Of a stretch of 64,000 bases of DNA, positions 14,341-37,169 are shown piece by piece. The notes under the pieces are model-generated. The model saw only the letters and a program-made list of their open reading frames with translations. It was not told where the DNA came from and ran no database searches. The stretch is from an uncultured Actinomycetes bacterium (GTDB lineage: Bacteria > Actinomycetota > Thermoleophilia > RBG-16-64-13), in assembly GCA_963706025.1 (NCBI GenBank), contig CAVPLM010000005.1:512001-576000 (forward strand), written 5' to 3'. The first letter of the stretch is position 1, and every line of letters begins with the position of its first letter. The position numbers were made by a program, and so were the translations under genes.

Positions 14341-15621
14341 CTAAAGCACCCTCAGGGTCATGGGCCTGCTCTTGCAGCACTTCAAGCCCTTGGCCTGCTC
14401 GATCGCGGCGAAGAAATCCTTTTCGCGCGTGGGGTGCGTGATGAGCACCAACTCCGCCTCCGCCCCCCTGCCCTTCTGGATCATGCTTGCGATCGAGACC
14501 CCGTGCTCGCCGAACACGGACGCGATCTGGGCCAGCACGCCGGAAACGTCTTCCACGTTCATCTTGATGAAGAAGGCCGATTCCACCTCATCCGCCGGGT
14601 AGAAGCCCAGATGGCGGTAGCAGGAGCAGCTCTGCAGGAAGCCGACGTCCTTGGTGTTGGCGATGGAGATGATATCGCTCACCACTGCGGTAGCCGTAGG
14701 TGCGCCGCCGGCACCGGGCCCCATCAACATGATCTCCCCGATGGCGCTGCCACGTAGGAACACCGCGTTGTGAGAGCCGCTGATGGACGCGAGTGGATGA
14801 TCGACCGGCACCAGAGCGGGAAACACCCGCACGCTCACCCGCTCGTCCATCAGACGAGCCGCGCCGATCAGCTTGACCACAAAGCCCAGGTCCTTGGCAT
14901 AGCGTACGTCCTCCAGGCCTATTTCCTGGATGCCCTCGAACGATACATCGGCCAACGTGACGCGCGAATGGAAAGCGATCGACCCCAGAATGGCCATCTT
15001 CGCAGCCGCGTCGGCTCCACCCACATCGGCGGTGGGATCGGCTTCAGCAAAACCCAGTTCCTGAGCCTTGGCCAGGATGTCGGCATAGTCGCCCTCGTCG
15101 CTATACATGCGGCTGAGGATGTAATTGGTGGTGCCGTTCACTATCCCGTACACCGTGTGGAGTCCCGCCGCGATCATGCTCTCCCGCATCACCTTGATGA
15201 TGGGGATCGCCCCAGCTACCGAAGCCTCGAAACGCAGGTGACGTTTCTCGTCTCGAGCAAGATCGAACAGGGCCTCACCTCGGGAAGCCAGAAGCTGCTT
15301 GTTGGCCGTTACCGCGTTCTTTCCCTTCCGCATCGCCGCATCGAGAAAGGTGAACGCGGCGTCGGTGCCGCCGATCAATTCCACCACGATATCTATGGAG
15401 CGATCGTCCACGATCTGAGCGAAATCGCTGGTGAACAGACCCGGGGGCGCGTCGGCGGGGATCTTCGCCTCATCGATCTCCAGCACCTTCGCGACCTGGA
15501 GGTCCACCCCGGTACCGTCCAGGATCTGGTCGTGTTCCTTCTGGATGAGCCGGTACACGCTGGATCCGATGGTACCGAAACCCAGCAGACCGAGTCGTAC
15601 GGTCCTTTGCTCCCGACTCAT
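14341..15621 (-). CDS. hom: Homoserine dehydrogenase with C-terminal ACT domain
   Basis: GLLGFGTIG, VTANK, EASVAGAIP, NGTTNYIL, AEADPTAD. Confidence 0.96.
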   Translation of the reverse strand: MSREQRTVRLGLLGFGTIGSSVYRLIQKEHDQILDGTGVDLQVAKVLEIDEAKIPADAPPGLFTSDFAQIVDDRSIDIVVELIGGTDAAFTFLDAAMRKGKNAVTANKQLLASRGEALFDLARDEKRHLRFEASVAGAIPIIKVMRESMIAAGLHTVYGIVNGTTNYILSRMYSDEGDYADILAKAQELGFAEADPTADVGGADAAAKMAILGSIAFHSRVTLADVSFEGIQEIGLEDVRYAKDLGFVVKLIGAARLMDERVSVRVFPALVPVDHPLASISGSHNAVFLRGSAIGEIMLMGPGAGGAPTATAVVSDIISIANTKDVGFLQSCSCYRHLGFYPADEVESAFFIKMNVEDVSGVLAQIASVFGEHGVSIASMIQKGRGAEAELVLITHPTREKDFFAAIEQAKGLKCCKSRPMTLRVL

Positions 15622-15646
15622 ACCGCTCCCTTCTCTGTCGTCCCCA

Positions 15647-16966
15647 CTAGTCGTGCAGCGGGTGCTGCTTCGCCACCAGATCGGCGTAGCTCTCGCGCTC
15701 GATGATGACCCGCGCCCGGCCCTCGTTCACCAGGATGACGGCCGGCCGCAGGCTACCGTTGTAGTTCGAGGCCATGGCGTAACAGTACGCGCCGGTGGCC
15801 GGCATGACCAGAACGTCACCCGGCTCCGGACGGGCGATGACGGCGTCCCGGATGAGGATGTCGCCACTCTCGCAGTGCTTGCCCGCAACCGTGACGGTCG
15901 TGTCTGCGGGCGCCTCGGCCTTGTTCGCCAGCATGACCTCGTACCGGGCATCGTAGAGCATGGGACGGATGTTGTCGCTCATGCCCCCGTCGACGCTCAC
16001 ATAGGTGCGGACGCCCGGGATCTCCTTGATCGTTCCGACCCGGTAGGCGGTGATGCCCGCTTTGCCTACGATCGATCGTCCGGGCTCGATGAGAACCCTG
16101 GGCATGGGCAGGCCCATGGCCGCCATTTCTTCCCGGACCCCTTCGACCTTCACCGTTACGTAGTCGGCGATGGACGAAGGCGCGTCGGCTTCGGTGTAGC
16201 GGATGCCCAGACCGCCCCCGATGTTGAGATAGCGACAGTCGAAACCGAGGCTCGCATGCGCTTGACCTATGAGTCTCACCAGGATCTCGATCGCCTTCCT
16301 GAACGGCTCGAGAAGGAATACCTGGCTGCCTATGTGGGCGTGCACGCCCACGAGATCCAAGTGAGGCGCGGCGAGAGCCCGGCGGATGGCCTCCAGAGCC
16401 ACTCCCTCCAGAAGCCCGAAGCCGAACTTCGAATCGACCTGGCCGGTCTCGATGTATGAATGCGTGTGGGCTTCGACGCCTGGAGTGATGCGAAGAAGGA
16501 TCCGCTGCGAACCTCCCCGTGCTGCTACCAGTTCTTCCAGCAAGTCCAACTCCTGGAAGCTGTCGACCACGATGAACCCAACGCCTCGCGCAAGCGCGTA
16601 TTCCAGCTCCTCGCGGGTCTTGTTGTTTCCGTGGAAGAAAATGCGCTCGGCGGGAAAGCCGGCTACCTCGGCCACGTGGTATTCCCCTCCAGACGACACG
16701 TCGATCGAAAGCCCCTCCTCGAGCACCAACTGGTCCACCGCCACCGAGGAGAACGCCTTGCTGGCGTAGATCACCTCGAAGTCGTCGGTATGCTCGCGGA
16801 ACGCCGTTAGGTAGCGCCGACACTGGTCGCGGATGGACTCCTCCTCGTATATGACGAGGGGGCTGCCGTACCCGGCCACCAACTCGGCGACATCGCAGCC
16901 ACCGACCTGCAGGTGTCCGGCCGCGTTGTGCGAAGCAGTGATGGGATAGACGAGCGTGTGGGTCAC
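15647..16966 (-). CDS. lysA: Diaminopimelate decarboxylase
   Basis: YASKAF, HGNNK, DSKFG, HIGSQ, EPGRSIV, GKHCESGD. Confidence 0.96.
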   Translation of the reverse strand: MTHTLVYPITASHNAAGHLQVGGCDVAELVAGYGSPLVIYEEESIRDQCRRYLTAFREHTDDFEVIYASKAFSSVAVDQLVLEEGLSIDVSSGGEYHVAEVAGFPAERIFFHGNNKTREELEYALARGVGFIVVDSFQELDLLEELVAARGGSQRILLRITPGVEAHTHSYIETGQVDSKFGFGLLEGVALEAIRRALAAPHLDLVGVHAHIGSQVFLLEPFRKAIEILVRLIGQAHASLGFDCRYLNIGGGLGIRYTEADAPSSIADYVTVKVEGVREEMAAMGLPMPRVLIEPGRSIVGKAGITAYRVGTIKEIPGVRTYVSVDGGMSDNIRPMLYDARYEVMLANKAEAPADTTVTVAGKHCESGDILIRDAVIARPEPGDVLVMPATGAYCYAMASNYNGSLRPAVILVNEGRARVIIERESYADLVAKQHPLHD

Positions 16967-23855: not shown

Positions 23856-24548
23856 TCAGATGAAAGGAAGCTCGTCGGTGTCATCTTCGTCGAGTGCATC
23901 GGACCGGCGCAGACGACGGAAGATGGGGTCCTTCAAGATGCTGGGCATGTTCCGCCACAGACACAAGTCCGCTTTGAGGTAGCGTTCCTTGATCTCGGGC
24001 GAGCACTCCAGAGTGCAGGTGAGGCAGAACTCCTCCTCCACCGATATTTTCTCGCGCCCGGGTCGCTCCCCCTCGTCCACACGACGATATGCCTCGAGGA
24101 GGAGGTTCTCGACGTTGATGGAAGGGATCACATTGAACTGGACCGGTCGCGAAGGTACGACGAATCGAAACGTGCCGGTATTCCAGTACATGAGCTGCAT
24201 GATCTGGTCGGCGGTATGACGGTTGACGATCTCGACCAGGACTTCCGGCTCCGCCTCGGCCGCATCAAGAAGAGCCGCCAGTACCGGCTGCTCCTCGTCG
24301 GCCTGGGAGTATCTCATCCAGCATTCCTTCGCCTTGCTCTCTGCGAGAGTCCCTGTAGCCACCAGTTTCGCTCCCAGCGCCTCATCGGAGAGCGGCATGC
24401 TGATGGCGTCGATCCGCCCATTGGAAAGATATATGGCTCCGAACTCCTCGAAATCCTGGATCTCGAGCACTCCCGACCTCCGTTGGGAGGCAAGGAACTG
24501 GAGGATGCTAAAGAGTGGGAACTCCCGGATGTTGCCCCAGAGGATCAT
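23856..24548 (-). CDS. DUF4388 (PatA-N-like) domain protein with a Cys-rich tail
   Basis: LWGNIREFPLFSILQFLA..RRSGVL, W.TGTFRF, NLLLEAYRRVDE. Confidence 0.75.
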   Translation of the reverse strand: MILWGNIREFPLFSILQFLASQRRSGVLEIQDFEEFGAIYLSNGRIDAISMPLSDEALGAKLVATGTLAESKAKECWMRYSQADEEQPVLAALLDAAEAEPEVLVEIVNRHTADQIMQLMYWNTGTFRFVVPSRPVQFNVIPSINVENLLLEAYRRVDEGERPGREKISVEEEFCLTCTLECSPEIKERYLKADLCLWRNMPSILKDPIFRRLRRSDALDEDDTDELPFI

Positions 24549-24635: not shown

Positions 24636-24664
24636 TTGACACAACGGGTCCCAGCACCCAAAAT
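24636..24664 (+). promoter_or_regulatory. Putative sigma70 promoter of DUF485-actP
   Basis: TTGACA-N17-CAAAAT. Confidence 0.5.
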
Positions 24665-24738: not shown

Positions 24739-25020
24739 ATGCTCCATGAACCAGCGACAGTACACGGGGTAGACGAAGCGGCTGCCTACAAGAAACGCCT
24801 TGGGCTGTGGATGTTGCTCTTCTATAGCGTTCTGTACATCATCTTCATCATCATCAACGTCGTCTGGCCAAAGTCCATGGGCACCATCGTGGTGTACGGG
24901 CTGAACCTCGCGATCGTCTACGGCTTTGCGCTGATCATCATAGCCTTTCTCCTAGCTATCGCCTACAACTGGCTGTGCACCAGGCACGAGAAGTCGTTCG
25001 AAGGCGAGGAGAAGGCCTAG
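24739..25020 (+). CDS. DUF485 (YjcH-like) small membrane protein
   Basis: Two TM helices, GLNLAIVYG; lies immediately upstream of actP. Confidence 0.85.
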   Translation: MLHEPATVHGVDEAAAYKKRLGLWMLLFYSVLYIIFIIINVVWPKSMGTIVVYGLNLAIVYGFALIIIAFLLAIAYNWLCTRHEKSFEGEEKA

Positions 25021-25021
25021 C

Positions 25022-27010
25022 ATGAATACGGTAGAGCCTCTCGCCATCATCATCTTCCTGTTGATCGTCGGCCTGGTCCTCTTCGTCTCTTTCTATACCG
25101 CACGCAGAGCCAGGTCCGCCAGCGGCTACTACGCAGCCGGGGGACGGATACACTGGGGAGTCAACGGTATCGCCTTCGCCGGCGATTACTTGTCTGCGGC
25201 TTCCTTCCTCGGCATCTGCGGTCTTATCGCCGTCTCCGGCTACGACGGGTTTCTCTACTCGATCGGCTACTTGGCCGGCTGGGTGGTCGCCCTGTTCGTC
25301 GTGGCGGAGCCGCTCAGGCGGCTCGGTCGCTACACGTTCACCGACGCTCTCGACGCCAAGTTCAACAAGCGCAGCGTGAAGCTCATGGCCGCGATCGCCA
25401 CGCTTATCGTGTCCATCTTCTACCTCATCCCTCAGATGGTGGGGGCAGGAGTGCTCATCGAGCCGCTCCTGGGCTTCCCTTACTGGGCGGGGGTAGTCTT
25501 GGTCGGCGCGATCGTCATAACCATCGTGGCCACTGCGGGAATGACTTCCACGACCTACGTGCAGTTCATCAAAGGCTCGCTCCTCATCGTCTTCGTCCTC
25601 GTGATCGTGGTGGCACTCTGCATACGCGGTTTTTCCACCGAGCCTGATCAGGGAGGCAGAGTCCCCTTCCATCACTACAAGACCATCACCGCGACGGAGA
25701 CCAACGGCACGATAACTCCGGACGACACCACCTACGAGGTTGTCGGCCAGCAAGACGTAACGGTCAAGGATAAGACCACCACGTTCGTCAAGCTCGACAG
25801 AGACGGGGTCGCCACCTGGTGGAAGATGACCACCGGCGATTCCGGAGTCGCGCTCCACGAGACGCAGGAGGTGGTGATCAAGGAGGACGGGACCAAGTAC
25901 GTCAACGGTGCTCCCGTGACCGACGACAATCAGTTGAGGCAGGTCAGCCACATGAGTCTCATCGCCGGCGAGACATACACCGACGGTGGCGCCGTGAATC
26001 CCTTCAAGTTCCTCGCCCTGATCGGCGATCCTGAGTCCACCATCAACCTATGGAAGAAGGCCGCGTTCGAGGACGGCGGCGACCAGGTGTCTGTGTACTA
26101 CTCGGTGCCTGTCTCGGGCGACACGGTAGTCAAACCGGGTCAATCGTTCAAGCTCGAGGGCTCGGTCCTGGACCGGGTCGACTTCGTCTCCCTCATGATC
26201 GCTCTCTTCCTGGGAACAGCCGCGCTGCCACACATCCTCATACGCTACTACACCGTGCCCAGCCAGAGAGCGGCCCGCAAGTCGACGGTGGTCGCCATCG
26301 CCGCGATCGGCTTTTTCTACATACTCACACTCTTCATGGGCCTCGGGGCCATGACGAGCAACACGGTGAATGTTTTGGACAACAACATGTCGGCGCCGCT
26401 TCTGGCTCGATCGTTCGGGACCTTCCTGTTCGCCATGATCTCGGCCATCGCCTTCGCGACCGTCCTCGGGACCGTGAGCGGCCTGATCATCGCCGCCTCC
26501 GGCGCGGTCGCCCACGATCTCATGGACCGCTTCGGCGGCTTGATCAAAAACGACAAACAGAAAGTGGTCGCAGGACGGGTCGCCGCCTTTGTGGTGGGAG
26601 CCATCGCGATCCTTCTCGGCATAGCGTTCCAGGGCATCAACGTGTCTTTCTTGGTGGGTCTTGCCTTTGCGGTGGCTGCGTCGGCGAACCTGCCCTGCAT
26701 CATCATGATGCTCTTCTGGAAGCGAACTACATCGAAGGGTATGGTCGCGTCCATCATCGTGGGCATCGTGGCTTCGGTGGGCATCATCGTGTTCTCGCCT
26801 ACAGCGTGGGAGCTCTACGGACTCAATCCCGCCGATGCCCCCATCCCTCTCAAGAACCCGGGCATCATCTCCATCCCGCTGAGCTTCATCGCCATATATC
26901 TGGTGTCGAAGTTCACCAAGCCCGACATGATGGAGGAGCACCCGGTGACGGGACAGTACTCTGTTGCGGGGTCTCAGGGAGCTGTCGCGGAGACCGCGCC
27001 GGCCGAATAG
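25022..27010 (+). CDS. actP: Cation/acetate symporter (SSS family) with a large soluble insertion
   Basis: NGIAFAGDYLSAASFLG, FYLIPQMVGAG, TTYVQFIKG, GTAALPHILIRYYTVP, AASANLP. Confidence 0.92.
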   Translation: MNTVEPLAIIIFLLIVGLVLFVSFYTARRARSASGYYAAGGRIHWGVNGIAFAGDYLSAASFLGICGLIAVSGYDGFLYSIGYLAGWVVALFVVAEPLRRLGRYTFTDALDAKFNKRSVKLMAAIATLIVSIFYLIPQMVGAGVLIEPLLGFPYWAGVVLVGAIVITIVATAGMTSTTYVQFIKGSLLIVFVLVIVVALCIRGFSTEPDQGGRVPFHHYKTITATETNGTITPDDTTYEVVGQQDVTVKDKTTTFVKLDRDGVATWWKMTTGDSGVALHETQEVVIKEDGTKYVNGAPVTDDNQLRQVSHMSLIAGETYTDGGAVNPFKFLALIGDPESTINLWKKAAFEDGGDQVSVYYSVPVSGDTVVKPGQSFKLEGSVLDRVDFVSLMIALFLGTAALPHILIRYYTVPSQRAARKSTVVAIAAIGFFYILTLFMGLGAMTSNTVNVLDNNMSAPLLARSFGTFLFAMISAIAFATVLGTVSGLIIAASGAVAHDLMDRFGGLIKNDKQKVVAGRVAAFVVGAIAILLGIAFQGINVSFLVGLAFAVAASANLPCIIMMLFWKRTTSKGMVASIIVGIVASVGIIVFSPTAWELYGLNPADAPIPLKNPGIISIPLSFIAIYLVSKFTKPDMMEEHPVTGQYSVAGSQGAVAETAPAE

Positions 27011-27031
27011 ACCCAGCTTGACGTCTGAAGG

Positions 27032-27071
27032 GAGAGGCCGCCGGATGCGATCCCGCATCCGGCGGCCTCTC
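27032..27071. terminator. Hairpin between convergent actP and satP
   Basis: gagaggccgccggatgcg-atcc-cgcatccggcggcctctc, a perfect 18-bp stem. Confidence 0.8.
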
Positions 27072-27093
27072 GACTTCCAGGGAGTGCGCGCTC

Positions 27094-28149
27094 CTAGAAC
27101 ACGTCTTTGGCAGTGAGGGGAGCTCCGGTGTAACCGGCGCTCGCATAGTAGACCGCTCTGTCGAAGAACCTGCCCAGCTCGCGGTTGAGGTCCACCGCCT
27201 TCTGCAGATCCATGGCCGACTCCCATACCCCGTGGGTACGGGCCGACATCCATATCTCCCGTTTCAACAGCAGGATGGCGCTTATCAACTCAGGCAAAGG
27301 CAGTCCCTGGGCGGCTCTTGTCGTCCCGAGCCGGTGGAAGAACTCGCCTATGTCGGCCTCGGTGGGCTTGCCGGTGAAGTACTCGTCCACCTGGGTTAGG
27401 GCGAACTCACCTGCGCCTATCAGTTCGGCATCCGACACCACTCCGTACGAAGGCGTTTGCGGACTGCGCCGCAGGCTGTCCAGCCACAGAGTGGCTATCT
27501 CTTCCCCGTAATCCTGCACGAAGCCCCTCGAAAGCTGGCTGACGGGGCCCAGCGGCAGCAGAACCCGCTTGTAAGTCTCATTGAGTATCTGGGCACAGGC
27601 GGCATAGACCGCCGCAAGTCCGGTGATGATGCCTTCGTAGCCGGCGATCGTCCCCCAGACTGCTCCGCCTCCGAAATCGCGGATGGCGAGAAGGAAGAAA
27701 AGGATGGCCAGGAGGGCGAAGACCACCTGCAGGGCCCGATTGAGCTTGAGGGTGCCTACGAACATGTAGGCCGTGAAGAGCCCCCAGAAAACGAAGTACC
27801 AGGCCAGGGCGGTCTCGCTCGGTTTGGCGGCCGCGGCTGTGTCCGGAAAGATCGACGGGAGAAGCCAGATTCCCGCCAGCGTCAACCAGAACAACCCGTA
27901 TGAAGTGAAGGCCAGGGTCCCGAAGGTGTTGTTCTTCCGCCACTCCATGATCCCGGCGACGATCTGGGCCACACCGCCGTAGAAGATGCCCATGGCCAGG
28001 ATCATGGCGTTCAGCTCATAGAATCCTGCATTGTGGATATTGAGGAGGACGGTCGTGAGGCCGAACCCCATCAGCCCCAACGGAGCGGGGTTGGCGTTAG
28101 TGTCGAGCAGTTTGGTGACCGTTTCGGTCGAGATTAGTCCGTTCGCCAT
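27094..28149 (-). CDS. satP: Acetate channel SatP (GPR1/FUN34/YaaH) fused to a C-terminal RsbRD_N/HisK_N-like helical domain
   Basis: [30 protein letters not shown]. After VLLPLG come about 145 extra aa (EEIA..W...TPSY...LG..RA.QG.PL.E...L.K..IW...FFDRAVYY...GY). Confidence 0.85.
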
Positions 28150-28366
28150 CTACCAAGTACCTCCCATTGTGCCCACACGACCGTGTGCCCGTGATCAGTC
28201 ACCGACCGTCCCACCGCCAGGTTCCGGGCCGGACCGGTCGACACTATACTCGCGACCGGCAGGACTTGTCCACCCGAGTCGGATTTCTTGTAAAATGTTT
28301 TGGCCTCGTCGCGAGATGTGCCGGGGGTAATAAGAGTCCAATCAGAACGACGTCAAGAGAGACACC

Positions 28367-29134
28367 ATGACTGACATCATTCGGGTTGACCTGCACTGCC
28401 ATTCGTCGGCGAGCGACGGAGATCATTCGCCGGGCTACGTAGCCCACCAGTTGGCTACCGCCGGTGTAGTCTGGGCCTCCCTCGCCGATCACAATACGGT
28501 CGGGGGACTGGAGCGTTTCCGAGCGGCCGTCGAGAGACGAGGGATGCGCTATATCCCAGGCGTGGAGATGCATGCCCGGTCGCCCAAAGGGCCCGTGCAC
28601 CTGCTGGGCTATGGGGTCGACCCTGAGAACCAGCCTCTGCTGAGCGCATTACAGATACTGCGTCAACCCTGGCGGACTTCGGCCCGCCAGAGGCTCGCAC
28701 GAGTGTTCTCCCGGGGCAGGAGCGAGACACCAGAGACGGCGACCCGCCCCCCGGACGACGGTGATCCGTCACCCCAACACCAGCCCGACACTGCCGAGTC
28801 CATCCGTCTCATCCACCAGGCGGGAGGACGCGTCCTTCTAGCCCACCCGCTTGCAGGCCTGAAGACGATCGAGCGGCTCGAGGAATACCTGGACTGGCTA
28901 CAACCTCAGGGGCTAGACGGTATCGAGGCCTTCTACAAGTTGTACTTCCGCAGCACACAGCAGGAACTGCTGGAGCTCGCAGAACGCCGTGGCCTGCTGA
29001 CGACCGGTGGCAGCGATTTCCACGGGCTTCACAACCATGATGGAACCAGTCCCGGCGTCGAAATGCCGTTGGAGCAGCTGGAACGCTTTGTGGCAGCGGT
29101 GGGACTCCGACAAGAGCAGGATCTTGTTACCTGA
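28367..29134 (+). CDS. PHP-domain phosphoesterase
   Basis: DLHCHSSASDG, ADHNT, GVE, HLLGY, AHP, GGSDFHG. Confidence 0.9.
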   Translation: MTDIIRVDLHCHSSASDGDHSPGYVAHQLATAGVVWASLADHNTVGGLERFRAAVERRGMRYIPGVEMHARSPKGPVHLLGYGVDPENQPLLSALQILRQPWRTSARQRLARVFSRGRSETPETATRPPDDGDPSPQHQPDTAESIRLIHQAGGRVLLAHPLAGLKTIERLEEYLDWLQPQGLDGIEAFYKLYFRSTQQELLELAERRGLLTTGGSDFHGLHNHDGTSPGVEMPLEQLERFVAAVGLRQEQDLVT

Positions 29135-29168
29135 GGCGACCACGGTTAGCCGATCCTAAGGGGGAACG

Positions 29169-32120
29169 TTGAGAACCAGCAGAGGGCTGCTGCCCAGACT
29201 CAACCCGCGCAACTGGTCCAGTTTCGCCTTGCGCATAGTGCTGCCGGCGGTCCTGGCCATCGTCCTCTTCATCATCGCCATCTTCCTGATACTGATCCCC
29301 TCGGCCGAGAACCAACTGCTGGAAGGCAAGAAAGCAACTGCCCAGGAACTGACGCGGGCCGCGGTCAGCATCCTGGACGAGTACTATGCCGAGGAAGCGT
29401 CGGGCAGTATGACCAGGGAACAGGCCCAGGAAGAGGCAGCCGCCCGGATCGAGAACCTGAGATACGGTGATGAGGGGAAGGACTACTTCTGGATAACGGA
29501 CACGTATCCCACGATGATCATGCATCCGTACGTTCCAGAGCTGAACGGCCAGGACCTGACGGATTACGAAGACGAGAACGGCAAGAAGATCTTCGTGGAG
29601 TTCGTGAACGCCGTGGAGGACGACGGCTCCGGTTGGGTGGAGTACTACTGGCAGTGGCAAGACGACCCCACCCAGATAGTCCCCAAGATCTCCTACGTGC
29701 AGCTCTTCGAGCCCTGGCAGTGGGTGATCGGTACCGGGATGTACGTCGAGGACGTGAACGCAGCCATAGCGGAGGTGGAGCGAAACCTGATCTACATCTC
29801 GCTGGCGATCGTGGTGGCGGTCGCCCTGCTGCTCCTCTACGGCATCCGTCAAAGCGTCAAGATCGACAGAAAGCGTGCGGTGGCCGAAGAGGGGCTCAGG
29901 GAGTCACACGAAAAATACCGGGCCTTGGTGGAGGCGGCCACTGAGGGCCTCCTTATGACCCTCGAAGGCAAGTGCGCCTATTCGAATCAACCGTTGCTCG
30001 ATATGCTCGGCTACAAGGCCGAGGAGCTCGCCGAGACGGATGTGACCCAGCTGTTCTACCGGGAGACGGCCGACGATCGCGAAGCGCTGGCCAACATCGA
30101 GGCCCTCTCGAAAGGCGAGACAGTCCCCGAGACCTTCGAAGCTCGCTTCCGGCACAAGGACGGGCGCCCGGTCGAAGTCCTGCTGACGCCGGCGCCCATC
30201 TCGTTGGCGGGGAGAGAGGGCTTCATCCTCATCGCCCGCGGCTTGACCGGGCAGAAGGCCATCGAGGCGGCGCTCGATGATACCAGGCGCCAGTTCAGGA
30301 CCATGTCCGATGCCCTCAGCTTGGGAGTGTTCCGCAGCACCTGGGGCCGCAAAGCGACGCTCTTGGAAGCGAACCCGGCCATGCGAAACATCCTTCGCCT
30401 TCCTGTGTCCGTTGAACTGGCCGGCGCCGACTGGTTAGACCGCATCGTCGACCCAGCTGAACGTGAGGCCCTGGTTGCCCGACTGAACAGCGACAAGGCG
30501 GTGCAGGATTACCAGCTGGGACTCCGGCGTGAGGACGGAGGAAGAGTGGATGTGTCGTTGTTCGCCGTGCTGGTGGATGACGACAGCGGTGAACCACTTT
30601 ATTGCGACGGCATCTTCGAAGACATCACCCAGAAGAGAAAGGGCGCGGAGGAACGGGAGGCGCTGATCGCGCAACTACAGACGTCACTGTTCTTCCTGCA
30701 GGAGCCCATCACCCAGGCCGTGACACCGGCCGTGTCGGTGGAGATCGCCCAGACCGTATCCCGCGCCGCGGTCCTTATGACCAAGAACCGGGCCGGCGCG
30801 GTGTTCGTCAACGGTCCTGACGGAGAGCTCATGGGGATCGCGACCGACCATGATTTCCGTGAACGCGTGGTGGCTGAAGGTATTTCTCCAGAGGCCCCGA
30901 TGAGTTCGATCATGACCGCTCCCGTTGCCTCCATATCGTCCCAGGCGCCGATCTATGAAGCGCTTCTTCGCATGCAGGAAAGGAACGTGGATCACCTGGC
31001 GGTAATGGATGAGAGCGGCAAGCTTGTGGGCATAGTCCGTCTTCGCGACTTGGTCCAGTATCAGCGGTCTTCCTCGGTCGTCATCACCGACTCGATCCGG
31101 CGGGCGCGCTCGATAGACGACATCACCGAAGCCCACGCCAAGCTGCCCGAACTGGTCAAGGCCGTGGTCGACTCAGGAGCCGCCACCCGCTATGTCAACC
31201 GCATCATCTCCGGTGTTTCCGACGGGGTGGTCCAGCGGCTCGTGGCGATGGCGATCGATAGACTGGGACCCGCCCCGGCCCGCTTCGCCTTCCTGGCGCT
31301 CGGCAGCGAAGGCCGGGAGGAGCAGACGCTGCTTACCGACCAGGACAATGCGCTCCTGTACGAGGATCCACCGGCTGAGAGAGCCAAGGAGACCTCAGAA
31401 TACTTCCTGGCTCTGGGGACACTGGTGTGCGACTGGCTTGCTGAGGTGGGCTACTCCTATTGCGACGGTGGCGTCATGGCCAAGAACCCCCGATGGAACT
31501 TGCCCCGCTCGGTCTGGCGTCAGCAGTTCTCCCACTGGATCCACAATGCGGACCCACAGGAACTACTTGAACTCAACATGCTCTTCGACTTCCGTTGCGT
31601 ACATGGCGAGCAGCAACTCGCCCGCGAGTTGCGCGCGTGGGTCTTCGACCAAATGGAAGCCTATCCGCTCTTCTACCTGCACTTCGCTCAGAACGCCTTG
31701 CTGTACAAGCCGCCTCTGAGCCTGTTGGGTAATCTCCAGACCACCTCTTCGGATGAAGGCGTCAAGGCCCTCAGCCTCAAAGAGGCACTGATGCCGGTGG
31801 TGAACTCCGCCCGGCTCTATTCCCTGAGACATCGCATCGACTCCACCAACACTCTGGATAGGATCTCCGAGTTGCGGGACCGCGGGGTCCTGAGTCGCGA
31901 GTCCTACGAAGAGATGGCGCCGGACTACGAAACGCTCATGCGCATCAGGCTCCGCAGGCAGGCGGTCGCGATCGGCGAGAACCGCAAACCCAGCAACCTC
32001 ATCCCGCCGGAGGAGTTGACCTCTGCCGAAGAGATCAGGCTGAAGCGGCTCTTCACGCTCGCAGAGAACCTGCGCAAGAAGATAAGCTACGACTTCCTTG
32101 GGGGGATATCCGGCTTCTAA
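29169..32120 (+). CDS. Membrane sensor: sCache_2 - PAS - PAS - CBS pair - DUF294 nucleotidyltransferase/DUF294_C
   Basis: TM, RYG..DYFWI..MIMHP..KISYV..W.W.IGTG.Y, TM, two PAS domains (DIT end), CBS pair, LGSEGREEQTLLTDQDNAL, GGVMAKNPRW, FDFR. Confidence 0.88.
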   Translation: MRTSRGLLPRLNPRNWSSFALRIVLPAVLAIVLFIIAIFLILIPSAENQLLEGKKATAQELTRAAVSILDEYYAEEASGSMTREQAQEEAAARIENLRYGDEGKDYFWITDTYPTMIMHPYVPELNGQDLTDYEDENGKKIFVEFVNAVEDDGSGWVEYYWQWQDDPTQIVPKISYVQLFEPWQWVIGTGMYVEDVNAAIAEVERNLIYISLAIVVAVALLLLYGIRQSVKIDRKRAVAEEGLRESHEKYRALVEAATEGLLMTLEGKCAYSNQPLLDMLGYKAEELAETDVTQLFYRETADDREALANIEALSKGETVPETFEARFRHKDGRPVEVLLTPAPISLAGREGFILIARGLTGQKAIEAALDDTRRQFRTMSDALSLGVFRSTWGRKATLLEANPAMRNILRLPVSVELAGADWLDRIVDPAEREALVARLNSDKAVQDYQLGLRREDGGRVDVSLFAVLVDDDSGEPLYCDGIFEDITQKRKGAEEREALIAQLQTSLFFLQEPITQAVTPAVSVEIAQTVSRAAVLMTKNRAGAVFVNGPDGELMGIATDHDFRERVVAEGISPEAPMSSIMTAPVASISSQAPIYEALLRMQERNVDHLAVMDESGKLVGIVRLRDLVQYQRSSSVVITDSIRRARSIDDITEAHAKLPELVKAVVDSGAATRYVNRIISGVSDGVVQRLVAMAIDRLGPAPARFAFLALGSEGREEQTLLTDQDNALLYEDPPAERAKETSEYFLALGTLVCDWLAEVGYSYCDGGVMAKNPRWNLPRSVWRQQFSHWIHNADPQELLELNMLFDFRCVHGEQQLARELRAWVFDQMEAYPLFYLHFAQNALLYKPPLSLLGNLQTTSSDEGVKALSLKEALMPVVNSARLYSLRHRIDSTNTLDRISELRDRGVLSRESYEEMAPDYETLMRIRLRRQAVAIGENRKPSNLIPPEELTSAEEIRLKRLFTLAENLRKKISYDFLGGISGF

Positions 32121-34659: not shown

Positions 34660-35391
34660 CTACTTGATCCTGCCTACTCGCTCGAGCAGAGCGCGGTCTT
34701 TGATATGCACTTTGCGGCCCCGGGTCTCCACCGCCCCGGTCCGAGCCAGTTGCTGAAAGGCGCGGGACAGGGTCTCCGGCACCGTCCCGACCGCCGCCGA
34801 CAGCTGCGTCCTGGAGAGCTCGAGTTCCACGACCTGTTCTTGCTCCCCCTCGGCGGCCAGCGACAGGAGATGGGCCGCGAGCCGCTCGGCCACTTCACGC
34901 AACGAGAGATCCTCGATAAGCGATGTGAACGAGCGAAGGCGCGCCGACAAAGCAGCCAGGAGGCGCAGGGCCACTTCCGGCTCGCGGCGTACCATGTCGA
35001 GAAACGCCTGCCGGGGGACGTAGAGCGCCTCGCTCGGCTCCAGGGTCTCGGCGTTGGCGGGATACGACTCCCCGGCAAGCACCGCCACTTCGCCGACCGG
35101 CTCGCCCGGTCCCATGATCATCAGGGTCTGCTCCCGGCCCTTTGGTGACATCTTGAACACCTTGACCCGACCGCTGACCACAACGTACATACCCTGAGCC
35201 CGGTCGCCTTCAAGGAACACGGTCTGTCTGCCGGCAAAGCGCCTCCGCCGGCTCCTGGATATGAGCTCCTGCAGATGTCCATCGTCCAGGCCTTCGAACA
35301 GACTCGCCCGCCTGAGGATCTCGGCGAGTCCCGGTTCTGCGCTCGTGCCTGTTCGCACAGTCGACCGATCTATCACAACGTCTCTTCTCAC
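34660..35391 (-). CDS. Crp/Fnr family regulator (HcpR-like)
   Basis: cNMP-binding fold and HTH GTVPETLSR; divergent from hcp. Confidence 0.88.
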   Translation of the reverse strand: MRRDVVIDRSTVRTGTSAEPGLAEILRRASLFEGLDDGHLQELISRSRRRRFAGRQTVFLEGDRAQGMYVVVSGRVKVFKMSPKGREQTLMIMGPGEPVGEVAVLAGESYPANAETLEPSEALYVPRQAFLDMVRREPEVALRLLAALSARLRSFTSLIEDLSLREVAERLAAHLLSLAAEGEQEQVVELELSRTQLSAAVGTVPETLSRAFQQLARTGAVETRGRKVHIKDRALLERVGRIK

Positions 35392-35415
35392 CTTGACCCC
35401 TGGGGGTCGGACGCA

Positions 35416-35431
35416 CTTGACTTAGATCAAG
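35416..35431. promoter_or_regulatory. Fnr/HcpR-type binding site
   Basis: cTTGAC-ttag-ATCAAg between the regulator and hcp. Confidence 0.75.
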
Positions 35432-35537
35432 GGCAAGGGCCGGCGACTATGTTAGCTTCTGAACGGGAAAACAAGAACACAGTGCTGACCATCCTGGGGA
35501 TGGGCAGACACGGACAGACTAACCGAGGAGGACACCG

Positions 35538-37169
35538 ATGTTTTGCTACCAATGCGAGCAGACCGCAAGGTCGACGGCATGCACCGTCAAGGGGGTATGC
35601 GGCAAAGTGGACGATGTGGCGGCCATCCAGGACGCCATGGTGCACGCGCTCAAAGGCCTGGCGATCGTGGCCGAGAAGGCTGCTCCAGAAGGCATCGCTC
35701 TCGGTGACACCTCCACTTTTTTGGCCGAGTCATTGTTCATGACCCTCACGAACGTGAACTTCGACCCCGAGCCCCTGGCGAGCCAAGTCCATGAGGCCGT
35801 CGAGAGACGCGACGCTCTCAGGGCTGCTCTCGCCAAGAAACAGCCGGCGGTCACCTTCGCCGAAGGACCGGCCTCGTTCGTGCCTGCCGACACGGTGGCC
35901 GGACTGGCGGACCAGGGTCGCGAGCACGATGTCAACACGGAGGCGTCGTCAGACCCCAACATCCGCTCACTGCAGCATACCGTGCTTTACGGCCTCAAGG
36001 GACTCGCAGCGTACGCGTTCCATGCCGCCGAGTTGGGTTACCGGGACGACGCCGTGGACGGCTACCTCGTCGAAGCCCTGGCGGATCTCGCCCGCCACGA
36101 CGAAGGCGACCTCAATGATTGGATCGGCAAAGCCCTCCGTTGCGGCGAGATCAACTACAAGACCATGGAGCTGCTCGACCGGGGCAATACTGAGACCTTT
36201 GGCACCCCCACACCGACGGAGGTGCCGCTGGGTGTCAAAGCCGGGAAAGCCATACTGGTCTCCGGCCACGACCTGCTCGATCTCGACGAGCTCCTCAAGC
36301 AGACCGAGGGCAAAGGGATCACCATCTACACGCATGGCGAGATGCTGCCGGCCCACGGTTATCCCAAGCTCAAGGCCTATCCGCAGCTGTACGGCAACTA
36401 CGGCACCGCTTGGCAGAACCAGAAGAAGGAGTTCGCCGAGTTCCCCGGGGCCATCTTGATGACCACCAACTGCATCCAGGAACCCCAGGCCTCCTACGTC
36501 GACAACATCTTCACCAGGGCGACCGTCGGATGGCCGGGTGCTAGACATATCGAGAACCGCGATTTCAGTGCGGTCGTCGAGCGGGCGCTGGCGCTGCCCG
36601 GGTTCCCCGAGGATGCGCCCGGTAAGACGGTCCACGTGGGCTTCATGCGGAACGCGGTGCTCGATCACGCTGAGAAGATTATCGAGTTGGTCAAGGCCGG
36701 CAAGATCCGCCACTTCTTCCTGGTCGGTGGATGTGACGGGGCCAAACCGGGCCGCGACTACTACACTAGATTCGTCGAGGAAGCCCCCGCCGATACAGTG
36801 ATCCTCACTCTTGCCTGCGGCAAGTACCGCTTCTACGACAAGGATCTGGGATCGATCGACGGCATCCCCCGCCTGCTCGACATGGGACAATGCAACGACG
36901 CCTATTCCGCCATCCAGGTGGCCCTCGGCCTGGCCGATGCATTCGAGGTCGGGGTCAACGATCTGCCCCTTACCCTCATACTCTCGTGGTACGAGCAGAA
37001 GGCCGCGGCCATACTTCTCACGCTGCTGTACCTTGGTCTCAAGGACATGCGGCTCGGCCCCACTATGCCGGCTTTCTTGACCCCGGACGTGGCCAAGTTC
37101 ATCGTCGACACCTACAACCTGCACCCAATAACCACTCCAGAAGAAGACCTGCAGACCATCCTGGCCTGA
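35538..37169 (+). CDS. hcp: Hybrid cluster protein (hydroxylamine/NO reductase)
   Basis: MFCYQCEQT..C...GVCGK, YTHGEMLPAH, TTNC, GGCDG, GQCNDAYSA, SWYEQKA. Confidence 0.97.
   Translation: MFCYQCEQTARSTACTVKGVCGKVDDVAAIQDAMVHALKGLAIVAEKAAPEGIALGDTSTFLAESLFMTLTNVNFDPEPLASQVHEAVERRDALRAALAKKQPAVTFAEGPASFVPADTVAGLADQGREHDVNTEASSDPNIRSLQHTVLYGLKGLAAYAFHAAELGYRDDAVDGYLVEALADLARHDEGDLNDWIGKALRCGEINYKTMELLDRGNTETFGTPTPTEVPLGVKAGKAILVSGHDLLDLDELLKQTEGKGITIYTHGEMLPAHGYPKLKAYPQLYGNYGTAWQNQKKEFAEFPGAILMTTNCIQEPQASYVDNIFTRATVGWPGARHIENRDFSAVVERALALPGFPEDAPGKTVHVGFMRNAVLDHAEKIIELVKAGKIRHFFLVGGCDGAKPGRDYYTRFVEEAPADTVILTLACGKYRFYDKDLGSIDGIPRLLDMGQCNDAYSAIQVALGLADAFEVGVNDLPLTLILSWYEQKAAAILLTLLYLGLKDMRLGPTMPAFLTPDVAKFIVDTYNLHPITTPEEDLQTILA

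Follow-up and report, generated by a model that had tools for sequence, protein, structure and literature searches.

A predicted carboxylate receptor with a putative nucleotidyltransferase output and a phosphoesterase partner, encoded beside a DUF485-ActP symporter

In this work, we describe a five-gene locus, at positions 24739..32120 of a 64,000-nucleotide stretch of DNA from an uncultured Actinomycetes bacterium (hereafter the window; assembly GCA_963706025.1, contig CAVPLM010000005.1, positions 512,001 to 576,000), which encodes two types of acetate transporter, a PHP phosphoesterase and a 983-aa membrane protein joining an extracytoplasmic sensor domain to a DUF294 nucleotidyltransferase module. 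The reading that we favour, to which we assign a probability of roughly 0.48, just short of an even chance, is that of a receptor for carboxylates in which a writer nucleotidylylates a protein and a phosphoesterase acts as eraser, in the service of the DUF485-ActP symporter encoded alongside. The PHP protein and the 983-aa protein would be two halves of a one-component receptor, which is a single polypeptide in 23 of 80 related loci. The features on which this reading is built are the following:

24739..25020, plus strand: DUF485 (YjcH-like) small membrane subunit, divergent subtype, N-terminus MLHEPA (PF04341, E 1.1e-9)
25022..27010, plus strand: ActP/MctC-type sodium:solute symporter (SSF), 662 aa (PF00474, E 8e-73)
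25625..26185, plus strand: hydrophilic insertion of ~185 aa in ActP, residues 202-388 (hydropathy, positive-inside rule)
28367..29134, plus strand: PHP phosphoesterase of the TrpH/Cv1693 type, proposed eraser, 255 aa (PF02811, 26.5 bits)
29169..32120, plus strand: sensor nucleotidyltransferase, 983 aa, TTG start, with the order transmembrane helix (TM)-sCache_2-TM-PAS-PAS-CBS-CBS-DUF294-DUF294_C (hidden Markov model, HMM, scans; hydropathy)
29322..29783, plus strand: extracytoplasmic sCache_2 domain with a predicted C2/C3-carboxylate pocket (matches to 4K08 and 5G4Y)
29910..30638, plus strand: two cytoplasmic PAS domains (PAS, residues 248-357; PAS_4, residues 394-490)
30723..31061, plus strand: CBS pair (E 1.4e-20, in two stretches, residues ~519-631; CBS proteins of the PDB match residues 516-644)
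31140..32096, plus strand: DUF294 and DUF294_C nucleotidyltransferase module, proposed writer (Pfam, invariant motif, model fold)

All five genes, that of SatP included, were found in the open reading frame (ORF) listing where the initial annotation had placed them, and HMM scans agree with the domains it had given. One point of the layout had to be corrected: the PHP and sensor genes, initially described as a divergent pair, share a strand, with 34 nt between them, and the gene divergent from PHP is that of SatP, across a spacer of 217 nt. ActP begins at 25022, right after the end of the DUF485 gene at 25020, the DUF485 partner being thus directly upstream of the SSF symporter. The 983-aa sensor is the product of the single DUF294 gene of the assembly.

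Hydropathy analysis places transmembrane helices of the sensor at residues 23-41 and 208-226, on either side of a domain matching the sCache_2 model (PF17200, E 2.8e-42) over residues 52-205. Its best PDB matches are 4K08 (E 2e-37) and 5G4Y (E 5e-37), acetate- or propionate-binding sensor domains. Passages of the work on the PscD sensor domain name Y90, W92, H103, F126, Y143, W145 and K156 as its propionate contacts, and report the same seven residues to be identical in the acetate-binding domains of McpP and Adeh_3718 (PMC5062169). All seven are identical in the window, as Y106, W108, H119, F142, Y159, W161 and K173 (HMMER alignment to 5G4Y), and are invariant in 12 of 12 family members aligned, down to 41% identity. 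That the ligand is an acetate-like C2/C3 carboxylate is a well-founded prediction from these residues, and the short-carboxylate type initially proposed for the domain stands. Orthologues of the sensor are 65-85% identical to it in close kin and 32-50% identical in many phyla. The HMM scan of the 983-aa protein reported no kinase, GGDEF or HTH family, as initially noted, and no match to the cyclic nucleotide (cNMP)-binding domain PF00027, the TM-Cache-TM-PAS-PAS region standing in its place.

The output part of the protein consists of DUF294 (PF03445, residues 658-797, E 1.5e-45) and DUF294_C (PF10335, residues 834-976, E 2.7e-36), preceded by the CBS pair. The nucleotidyltransferase motif, GSEGREEQTLLTDQD, is present and intact, with one more spacer residue than the initial annotation had written. 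No variation is seen at G712, S713, R716, E718, D724, Q725 or D726 in the 65 sequences aligned, which come from many phyla, and the Pol-beta signature G-[SG]-x(9-13)-D-x-[DE] is found as G712-S713, x10, D724-x-D726; D807, likewise invariant in all 65, is presumably the third catalytic carboxylate. A search of the PDB by sequence returned no solved structure related to the module at E <= 10, GlnE and GlnD included. Residues 640-983 were modelled with AlphaFold2 from the 65-sequence alignment, with a predicted local distance difference test score (pLDDT) of 92.8 and a predicted template modelling score (pTM) of 0.90. When compared with the PDB by Foldseek, the model matched four chains only at E <= 0.001 (3e-8 to 8e-7): DrrA 6YX5_B, the best (E 3.3e-8, template modelling (TM) score 0.65), two chains of GlnE 3K7D, and GlnE 1V4A. 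Aminoglycoside nucleotidyltransferases (AadA; E 0.016, TM score 0.29) and DncV (E 0.38, TM score 0.21) came next. Over 300-301 residues, VIA-align gave Z values of 25.9 (1V4A), 24.8 (6YX5_B) and 24.5 (3K7D), the next full-length class reaching 8.7. As modelled, the DUF294 module has the protein-adenylyltransferase fold of GlnE and DrrA across both domains; this agrees with the grouping of DUF294_C with the C-terminal substrate-binding domains of GlnD and GlnE in passages of a survey of HEPN domains (PMC3710099), and bears out the initially proposed relation to protein nucleotidyltransferases.

The partner of the sensor gene was followed by a contig scan, in which each species was represented by one genome; all counts of related loci refer to the best 80 loci, mostly from metagenome-assembled genomes (MAGs). 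These were assigned to Actinomycetota, Chloroflexota, Verrucomicrobiota, Armatimonadota, Spirochaetota, Acidobacteriota, Planctomycetota, Gemmatimonadota, Sumerlaeota, NC10, Bacteroidota, Ignavibacteriota, Chlorobiota, Myxococcota and others; the 598 pattern matches of the scan do not equal 598 Cache-DUF294 genes, the search patterns lying within the Cache domain. A phosphoesterase is fused to the sensor or encoded next to it in 66 of the 80 loci, with all gaps at or below 422 nt. It is a PHP protein in 28, sharing an ORF with the sensor in 23 and being encoded by a separate gene directly upstream in 5; in 34 loci a Metallophos (calcineurin-like) protein of ~250 aa abuts the sensor gene, and in 4 the partner is AP_endonuc_2. 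In a large protein collection, PF02811 was present in 37 of the 120 homologues listed, proteins of 1189-1260 aa mostly 41-53% identical to the sensor, three close kin reaching 71-72%. Alignment places the PHP domain of the fused proteins N-terminal to the first transmembrane helix.

The PHP protein of the window just passes the Pfam cut-off (26.5 against 26.4 bits). Its nearest NCBIfam families are pAp phosphatase (E 1.9e-31) and RNase RNM (E 1.5e-23), and its nearest PDB relatives 3E0F, 2YB1 and 7UG9. Residues H10, H12, D17, H42, E67, H78, H160, D217 and H219 are invariant in 28 of 28 sequences; from what is known of the family, we take them to be metal ligands. The genome holds eight PF02811 matches, this partner being one of them, which marks the sensor-linked PHP as a dedicated paralogue. 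The same figure, and the lack of a known activity for any DUF294 protein, would suit an account in which the DUF294 module is non-catalytic, the receptor controlling ActP or its expression by binding, and the phosphoesterase is a common housekeeping enzyme, removing for instance pAp. We hold this to be very improbable, given that none of 65 sequences from many phyla departs from the catalytic carboxylates or the G-S motif, and none of the 28 from the PHP metal ligands; nor would one expect a housekeeping enzyme to be joined to the sensor in 23 loci, or exchanged in position for other phosphoesterases.

Such exchange extends to soluble proteins. In the class of the window, soluble CBS-DUF294 genes adjoin AP_endonuc_2 (L019, L024) or RNase_T (L020, L028), and in Pseudomonas the partner of PP_0354 is PP_0353, an RNase_T protein, as described in passages of PMC9927547. 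No RNase_T match was found in the 159 (112 + 47) neighbouring ORFs of Cache-type loci. In two genomes of the window's class (L025:475-1437, L027:2857-3780), the protein paired with a soluble cNMP-CBS-DUF294 has a class-II glutamine amidotransferase domain and is not a phosphoesterase. Four unrelated phosphoesterase superfamilies are found at the same position, and their sole common reaction is phosphodiester hydrolysis, which is what the eraser of a bond between a nucleoside monophosphate (NMP) and a protein hydroxyl, or of a nucleotide product, would need. The initial proposal that PHP takes the place of the usual DEDD exonuclease partner is thus strongly backed, both by the fusions and by the occurrence of Metallophos, AP_endonuc_2 and RNase_T at this position elsewhere; the fusions suggest, in addition, that the phosphoesterase is the functional counterpart of the nucleotidyltransferase.

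Each of these superfamilies also includes nucleases, namely RNase_T, PHP (7UG9, a 5'-3' exoribonuclease), AP_endonuc_2 and Metallophos, and the AP_endonuc_2 partners give weak matches to deoxyribonuclease IV. One may accordingly imagine a nucleotidyltransferase that tails the 3' end of RNA or DNA and an exonuclease that trims it, with a regulatory link to acetate, for example through the tailing of small RNA or tRNA. This appears quite improbable in view of the fold, which is that of protein adenylyltransferases (terminal uridylyltransferases give E 0.3-0.5 and TM scores of ~0.2), of the membrane anchoring of the enzyme, and of its location within a transporter operon; neither an RNA gene nor a domain that binds RNA turned up in the module.

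The presence of both activities in one sensor polypeptide deserves separate consideration, this being the usual layout of second-messenger enzymes, where a synthase is joined to a hydrolase (GGDEF-EAL, RelA/SpoT). With extracellular acetate as the stimulus, nucleotidyltransferase and phosphoesterase could synthesise and degrade a small nucleotide messenger, to be read by a separate receptor, such as a Crp-like regulator. A regulator of this type (cNMP_binding + HTH_Crp_2) is encoded in five Bacteroidota-type loci (L064, L073, L079, L089, L117), with the sensor/Metallophos block on one side and the symporter operon (DUF485 or DUF4212) on the other; the soluble kin of the sensor carry a cNMP-binding domain, and the Metallophos partners are weakly similar, all far below cut-off, to YfcE- and CpdA-type phosphodiesterases. 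We still judge a messenger unlikely, since the whole 300-residue module superposes on GlnE and DrrA with Z values of about 25, against E 0.38 and a TM score of 0.21 for DncV-type cyclases, since DUF294_C belongs, in the passages of PMC3710099, with the substrate-binding domains of GlnD and GlnE, and since no receptor gene is conserved across the 17 PHP-type loci compared.

Apart from the phosphoesterase, the recurrent neighbour of the sensor is a transporter. An ActP at least 55% identical to that of the window is found in 41 of the 80 loci, most often as a same-strand series DUF485-ActP-(PHP)sensor; a different SSF symporter, accompanied by DUF485 or DUF4212, is found in 21, and no SSF symporter was detected in the remaining 18, many of which have cut flanks. 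No further recurrent family was present among the 92 ORFs flanking 17 PHP-type loci, so that the conserved unit consists of transporter, phosphoesterase and sensor nucleotidyltransferase. Synteny of the entire cluster, SatP included, in 13 of 15 loci of the window's own family adds little to this, as it extends to the RlmH, K-channel and ABC genes on the flanks. In the neighbourhood survey initially suggested, the link to ActP is thus kept far beyond close kin and PHP is recurrent, while the tailed SatP is confined to one lineage; the description of the system as built around two acetate transporters holds for the lineage of the window only, SatP with its tail occurring in 5 of the 80 loci, all close kin.

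The window symporter scores 438 bits against the MctC model (cut-off 670) and 417 against that of ActP (cut-off 750), below both, and its match is split by the ~185-aa insertion. This segment is hydrophilic, apparently beta-rich, lies between two transmembrane helices and is predicted to face outwards; in other phyla, ActPs of 630-660 aa whose genes adjoin Cache-DUF294 likewise have their SSF match in two stretches. An insert-bearing ActP was found in 3 of 301 Actinomycetota genomes. The DUF485 subunit has hydrophobic segments at residues 21-52 and 57-75, and its N-terminal motif is kept in 41 aligned sequences (the window and 40 loci).

In the mechanism that we propose, the extracytoplasmic sCache_2 domain would bind acetate or a similar C2/C3 carboxylate, the two PAS domains and the CBS pair would supply cytoplasmic inputs, the latter perhaps the energy-charge input initially suggested, and binding of acetate would shift the balance between NMP transfer and removal. 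The writer, a nucleotidyltransferase of the GlnE/DrrA type, would place NMP on a protein hydroxyl group, and the eraser, the PHP metallo-phosphoesterase, would hydrolyse the resulting phosphodiester. The module would be dedicated to the adjoining DUF485-ActP monocarboxylate symporter, whose activity it most likely sets post-translationally, by analogy with GlnD-GlnK-AmtB; parsimony and the same analogy make the neighbouring DUF485-ActP complex the likeliest target, though the sensor may be its own substrate, or the target a distant protein, for instance acetyl-CoA synthetase (Acs). Acs is encoded ~500 kb away from the module, on the same contig. In the fused forms, PHP would sit on the first transmembrane helix and the PAS-CBS-nucleotidyltransferase arm on the second, and one might speculate that a single ligand event drives the two activities in opposite directions. 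What the sequences themselves show are the domains, the intact catalytic and ligand-contact positions, the fold of the model, the fusion with PHP and the conserved linkage; the ligand, NMP transfer to a protein, removal of the NMP by the PHP enzyme and the choice of target, be it ActP, DUF485, the sensor or a distant protein, are what we infer from them.

Several observations weigh against a nucleotidylylating receptor dedicated to DUF485-ActP. A shared fold is no proof of a shared substrate class, and the PHP protein is far below the equivalog cut-offs of its nearest families (109.2 against 400 bits for pAp phosphatase, 83.4 against 375 for RNase RNM). No phosphoesterase was found in 14 of the 80 loci, and in 6 of these a contig end truncates a flank. 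In a quick maximum-likelihood tree of the nucleotidyltransferase module, PHP-type and Metallophos-type loci are split with a support of 99, and AP_endonuc_2 loci are nested among the latter; partner type thus follows two clades, and the switches, as judged from this tree, are few events rather than many independent ones. The analysis identified no target of the nucleotidyltransferase, and the candidates examined, Tyr17 of DUF485 and the ActP insertion, offered no outstanding acceptor residue: Tyr17 is replaced by Lys in Bacteroidota-type loci, and the insertion, being predicted to lie outside the cell by hydropathy and the positive-inside rule, is out of reach of a cytoplasmic enzyme. Nor do insert-bearing ActP and sensor strictly co-occur, since one genome with such an ActP (G317, 93% complete, the gene lying near a contig end) has no sensor homologue at E <= 1e-10. 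Finally, no activity, ligand or target is reported for any DUF294 protein in the literature searched, and deletions of Pseudomonas homologues gave, according to passages of two reports, no acetate phenotype and moderate effects on pyruvate and propionate (PMC9927547; bioRxiv 10.64898/2026.09.07.749794).

SatP, the second transporter, lies on the opposite strand, and the remaining features of the region are given here with it:

24636..24664, plus strand: sigma-70-like promoter match upstream of the DUF485 gene, 10/12 hexamer matches
27094..28149, minus strand: SatP, 351 aa (AceTr_1, residues 20-199), with ~146 extra C-terminal residues
27535..28149, minus strand: SatP/AceTr acetate channel domain, residues 1-205 (NF038013, 260 bits; PDB 5YS3)
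27097..27534, minus strand: C-terminal cytoplasmic domain fused to SatP, predicted to be a sensor globin, RsbRD_N-like (PF14361, 19.1 bits; structure model)
28150..28366, no strand: intergenic region between SatP and the divergent PHP-sensor operon (ORF coordinates)

The channel domain matches the AceTr_1 model (260.4 bits against a cut-off of 50) and PDB 5YS3 (E 5e-56). The tail scores 19.1 bits against PF14361 (RsbRD_N), below the cut-off of 24.3, and is tentatively assigned to this family because stand-alone homologues, 29-36% identical to it, pass the cut-off with 28.6 and 34.6 bits. Its model is helical (pLDDT 86) and resembles, with TM scores of 0.63-0.72, pXO2-61, pXO1-118, RsbR-N and globin-coupled sensors (3PMC, 3PMD, 2BNL, 5OHF), all with Foldseek E > 0.001. 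As modelled, the tail is a sensor-globin domain, probably of the RsbRD_N family. A second copy, 36% identical, is found in the same genome in a 335-aa protein with Zn_ribbon_Nudix, NUDIX and RsbRD_N-like domains (G000:C3, L139:4922-5929, minus strand), the same module being thus fused, as judged by sequence similarity, to two different effectors in one genome. Homologues of the tail, stand-alone copies included, occur in 24 of 301 Actinomycetota genomes. The stand-alone copies, of ~165 aa, come from other Actinomycetota families (L140-L144), and adjoin MoxR/Mg-chelatase-like AAA and VWA proteins in L142, L143 and L144 and His_Phos_1 phosphatases in L140 and L141.

The tail had initially been put forward as a candidate target of the nucleotidyltransferase, a suggestion that we dropped: restricted to close kin in 5 of 80 loci, modular, fused to NUDIX elsewhere in the genome and free-standing in others, it is singled out by nothing. 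Complex prediction for the nucleotidyltransferase module and the tail scored 0.00, which gives no answer and speaks neither for nor against binding. The tail may instead be a cytoplasmic sensor gating SatP, and SatP in this form appears, from its distribution, to be an addition specific to this actinobacterial family.

The promoter match upstream of DUF485 is a positional hint only, as sigma-70-like sites number 2 in the region and 1.8 on average in shuffled sequences; within the SatP/PHP intergenic region one promoter-like site was found, on the minus strand (28272-28243). Upstream of DUF485, at 23856-24548 of the minus strand, lies a 230-aa ORF of no family, kept in 11 of 15 kin loci. Downstream (34660-37169), a regulator of the Crp/FNR family is divergent from a hydroxylamine reductase (hybrid-cluster protein), a pair which suggests an anaerobic lifestyle. 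The acetyl-CoA synthetase match of the genome (G000:C5:10696-12572) falls in two abutting frames (model positions 2-208 and 209-628), which could reflect a frameshift or an assembly error.

Some related loci have features of their own. In 20 of the 80, from Bacteroidota, Ignavibacteriota and Chlorobiota, the symporter is followed by a protein of 400-430 aa with no Pfam family (as in L107:7841-9142, L076:15040-16257 and L085:8026-9219, the last with a weak Porin_O_P match), which may be an outer-membrane channel of the same uptake module. Further genes with a link to acetate adjoin the Cache-DUF294 gene in some loci, namely those of a soluble cNMP-CBS-DUF294 paralogue (L055:7455-9278), an sCache_2 histidine kinase (L062:7124-8665), and an acetyl-CoA synthetase together with a sigma-54 response regulator (L061:7621-9597 and 14925-16508). 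In another family of the same class (L044, G058:C2:161441-180376), the whole DUF485-ActP-SatP-PHP-sensor cluster is found with no flanking synteny, all its genes being broken into overlapping frame-shifted matches with internal stops; decay after transfer, or poor assembly, could account for it.

DUF294/COG2905 proteins are widespread and found in acetate regulons of Pseudomonas and relatives, and their mutants are almost without phenotype. In the literature searched, passages on DUF294 itself were found only in the survey of HEPN domains, and these concern DUF294_C alone (PMC3710099); passages of the Pseudomonas work show its authors still calling for biochemistry (PMC9927547, PMC5715377, bioRxiv 10.64898/2026.09.07.749794). 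A search of the literature, covering main texts, found nothing in print on the Cache-PAS receptor form, on the PHP fusion, on replacement of the partner by Metallophos or AP_endonuc_2, or on tight adjacency to DUF485-ActP across phyla. The Cache-DUF294 family makes the question testable, as it offers a predicted C2/C3-carboxylate ligand, a fold of the protein AMPylation/uridylylation type and a phosphoesterase counterpart indicated by fusion. If correct, the favoured reading would add a new output class to one-component membrane receptors, and would mean that many anaerobic and environmental lineages control the uptake of short-chain fatty acids quickly and independently of transcription; should it be wrong, a new nucleotide messenger, as the alternative, would be no less interesting. 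More doubtful is the full extension of this reading: that in MAGs of more than 12 phyla such receptors gate DUF485-ActP directly by reversible protein nucleotidylylation, as the acetate counterpart of GlnD-GlnK-AmtB, with writer and eraser flanking a single Cache sensor within one polypeptide, which would give the DUF294/COG2905 proteins of acetate regulons, orphans for long, a function.

Each part of the system has known relatives. The Cache domain is of the PscD/McpP/Adeh_3718 type, with E-values of ~1e-37 to 4K08 and 5G4Y and the seven identical contacts; those domains drive chemoreceptor signalling modules, whereas here a nucleotidyltransferase is driven. The output module resembles GlnE, a Pol-beta nucleotidyltransferase followed by a helical substrate-binding domain (Z 24.5-25.9), and both share the G-S/G-x-D-x-D motif. 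GlnD similarly joins a nucleotidyltransferase writer to a metal-dependent HD hydrolase and to sensor domains. The differences are the absence of any sequence match to GlnE or GlnD detectable in the PDB search, the nature of the eraser, which is an HD domain or a second nucleotidyltransferase domain in GlnD and GlnE and PHP, Metallophos or AP_endonuc_2 here, and the input, which here comes from an extracellular Cache domain. DrrA/SidM of Legionella AMPylates a protein tyrosine, and is reversed by SidD, an unrelated enzyme of metallophosphatase fold; it is, however, a secreted effector acting on host Rab GTPases, with no sensor domains, and only 11-16% identical to the module of the window. TrpH/YciV (RNase AM) and Cv1693, a 3',5'-nucleoside bisphosphate phosphatase, share with the PHP protein the fold and the nine metal-ligand positions, while the latter is ~40 residues shorter in its middle, at the point where HMMER alignment to 3E0F and to 2YB1 is interrupted, and is of a type dedicated to, or fused with, a sensor.

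The closest known systems are the COG2905-type cNMP-CBS-CBS-DUF294 proteins (P. putida PP_0354/PP_0353, P. fluorescens Pflu5625), and a DUF294 sensor nucleotidyltransferase with a nuclease-like partner in acetate regulons is indeed of an already known, if uncharacterised, kind. The core of CBS pair, DUF294 and DUF294_C is the same; passages of the Pseudomonas reports also describe a phosphoesterase gene alongside, a genomic or regulatory link to actP and acetate metabolism, and the place of these proteins in the CrbS/R (= MxtR/ErdR) acetate regulon (PMC9927547, PMC5715377, bioRxiv 10.64898/2026.09.07.749794). The two systems differ in three respects: the cNMP-binding domain of COG2905-type proteins is replaced by TM-sCache_2-TM-PAS-PAS, making the window protein a membrane receptor; their DEDD exonuclease partner is replaced by PHP, fused to the sensor in other phyla; and their link to the transporter, which runs through a common regulator, is here one of direct gene adjacency.

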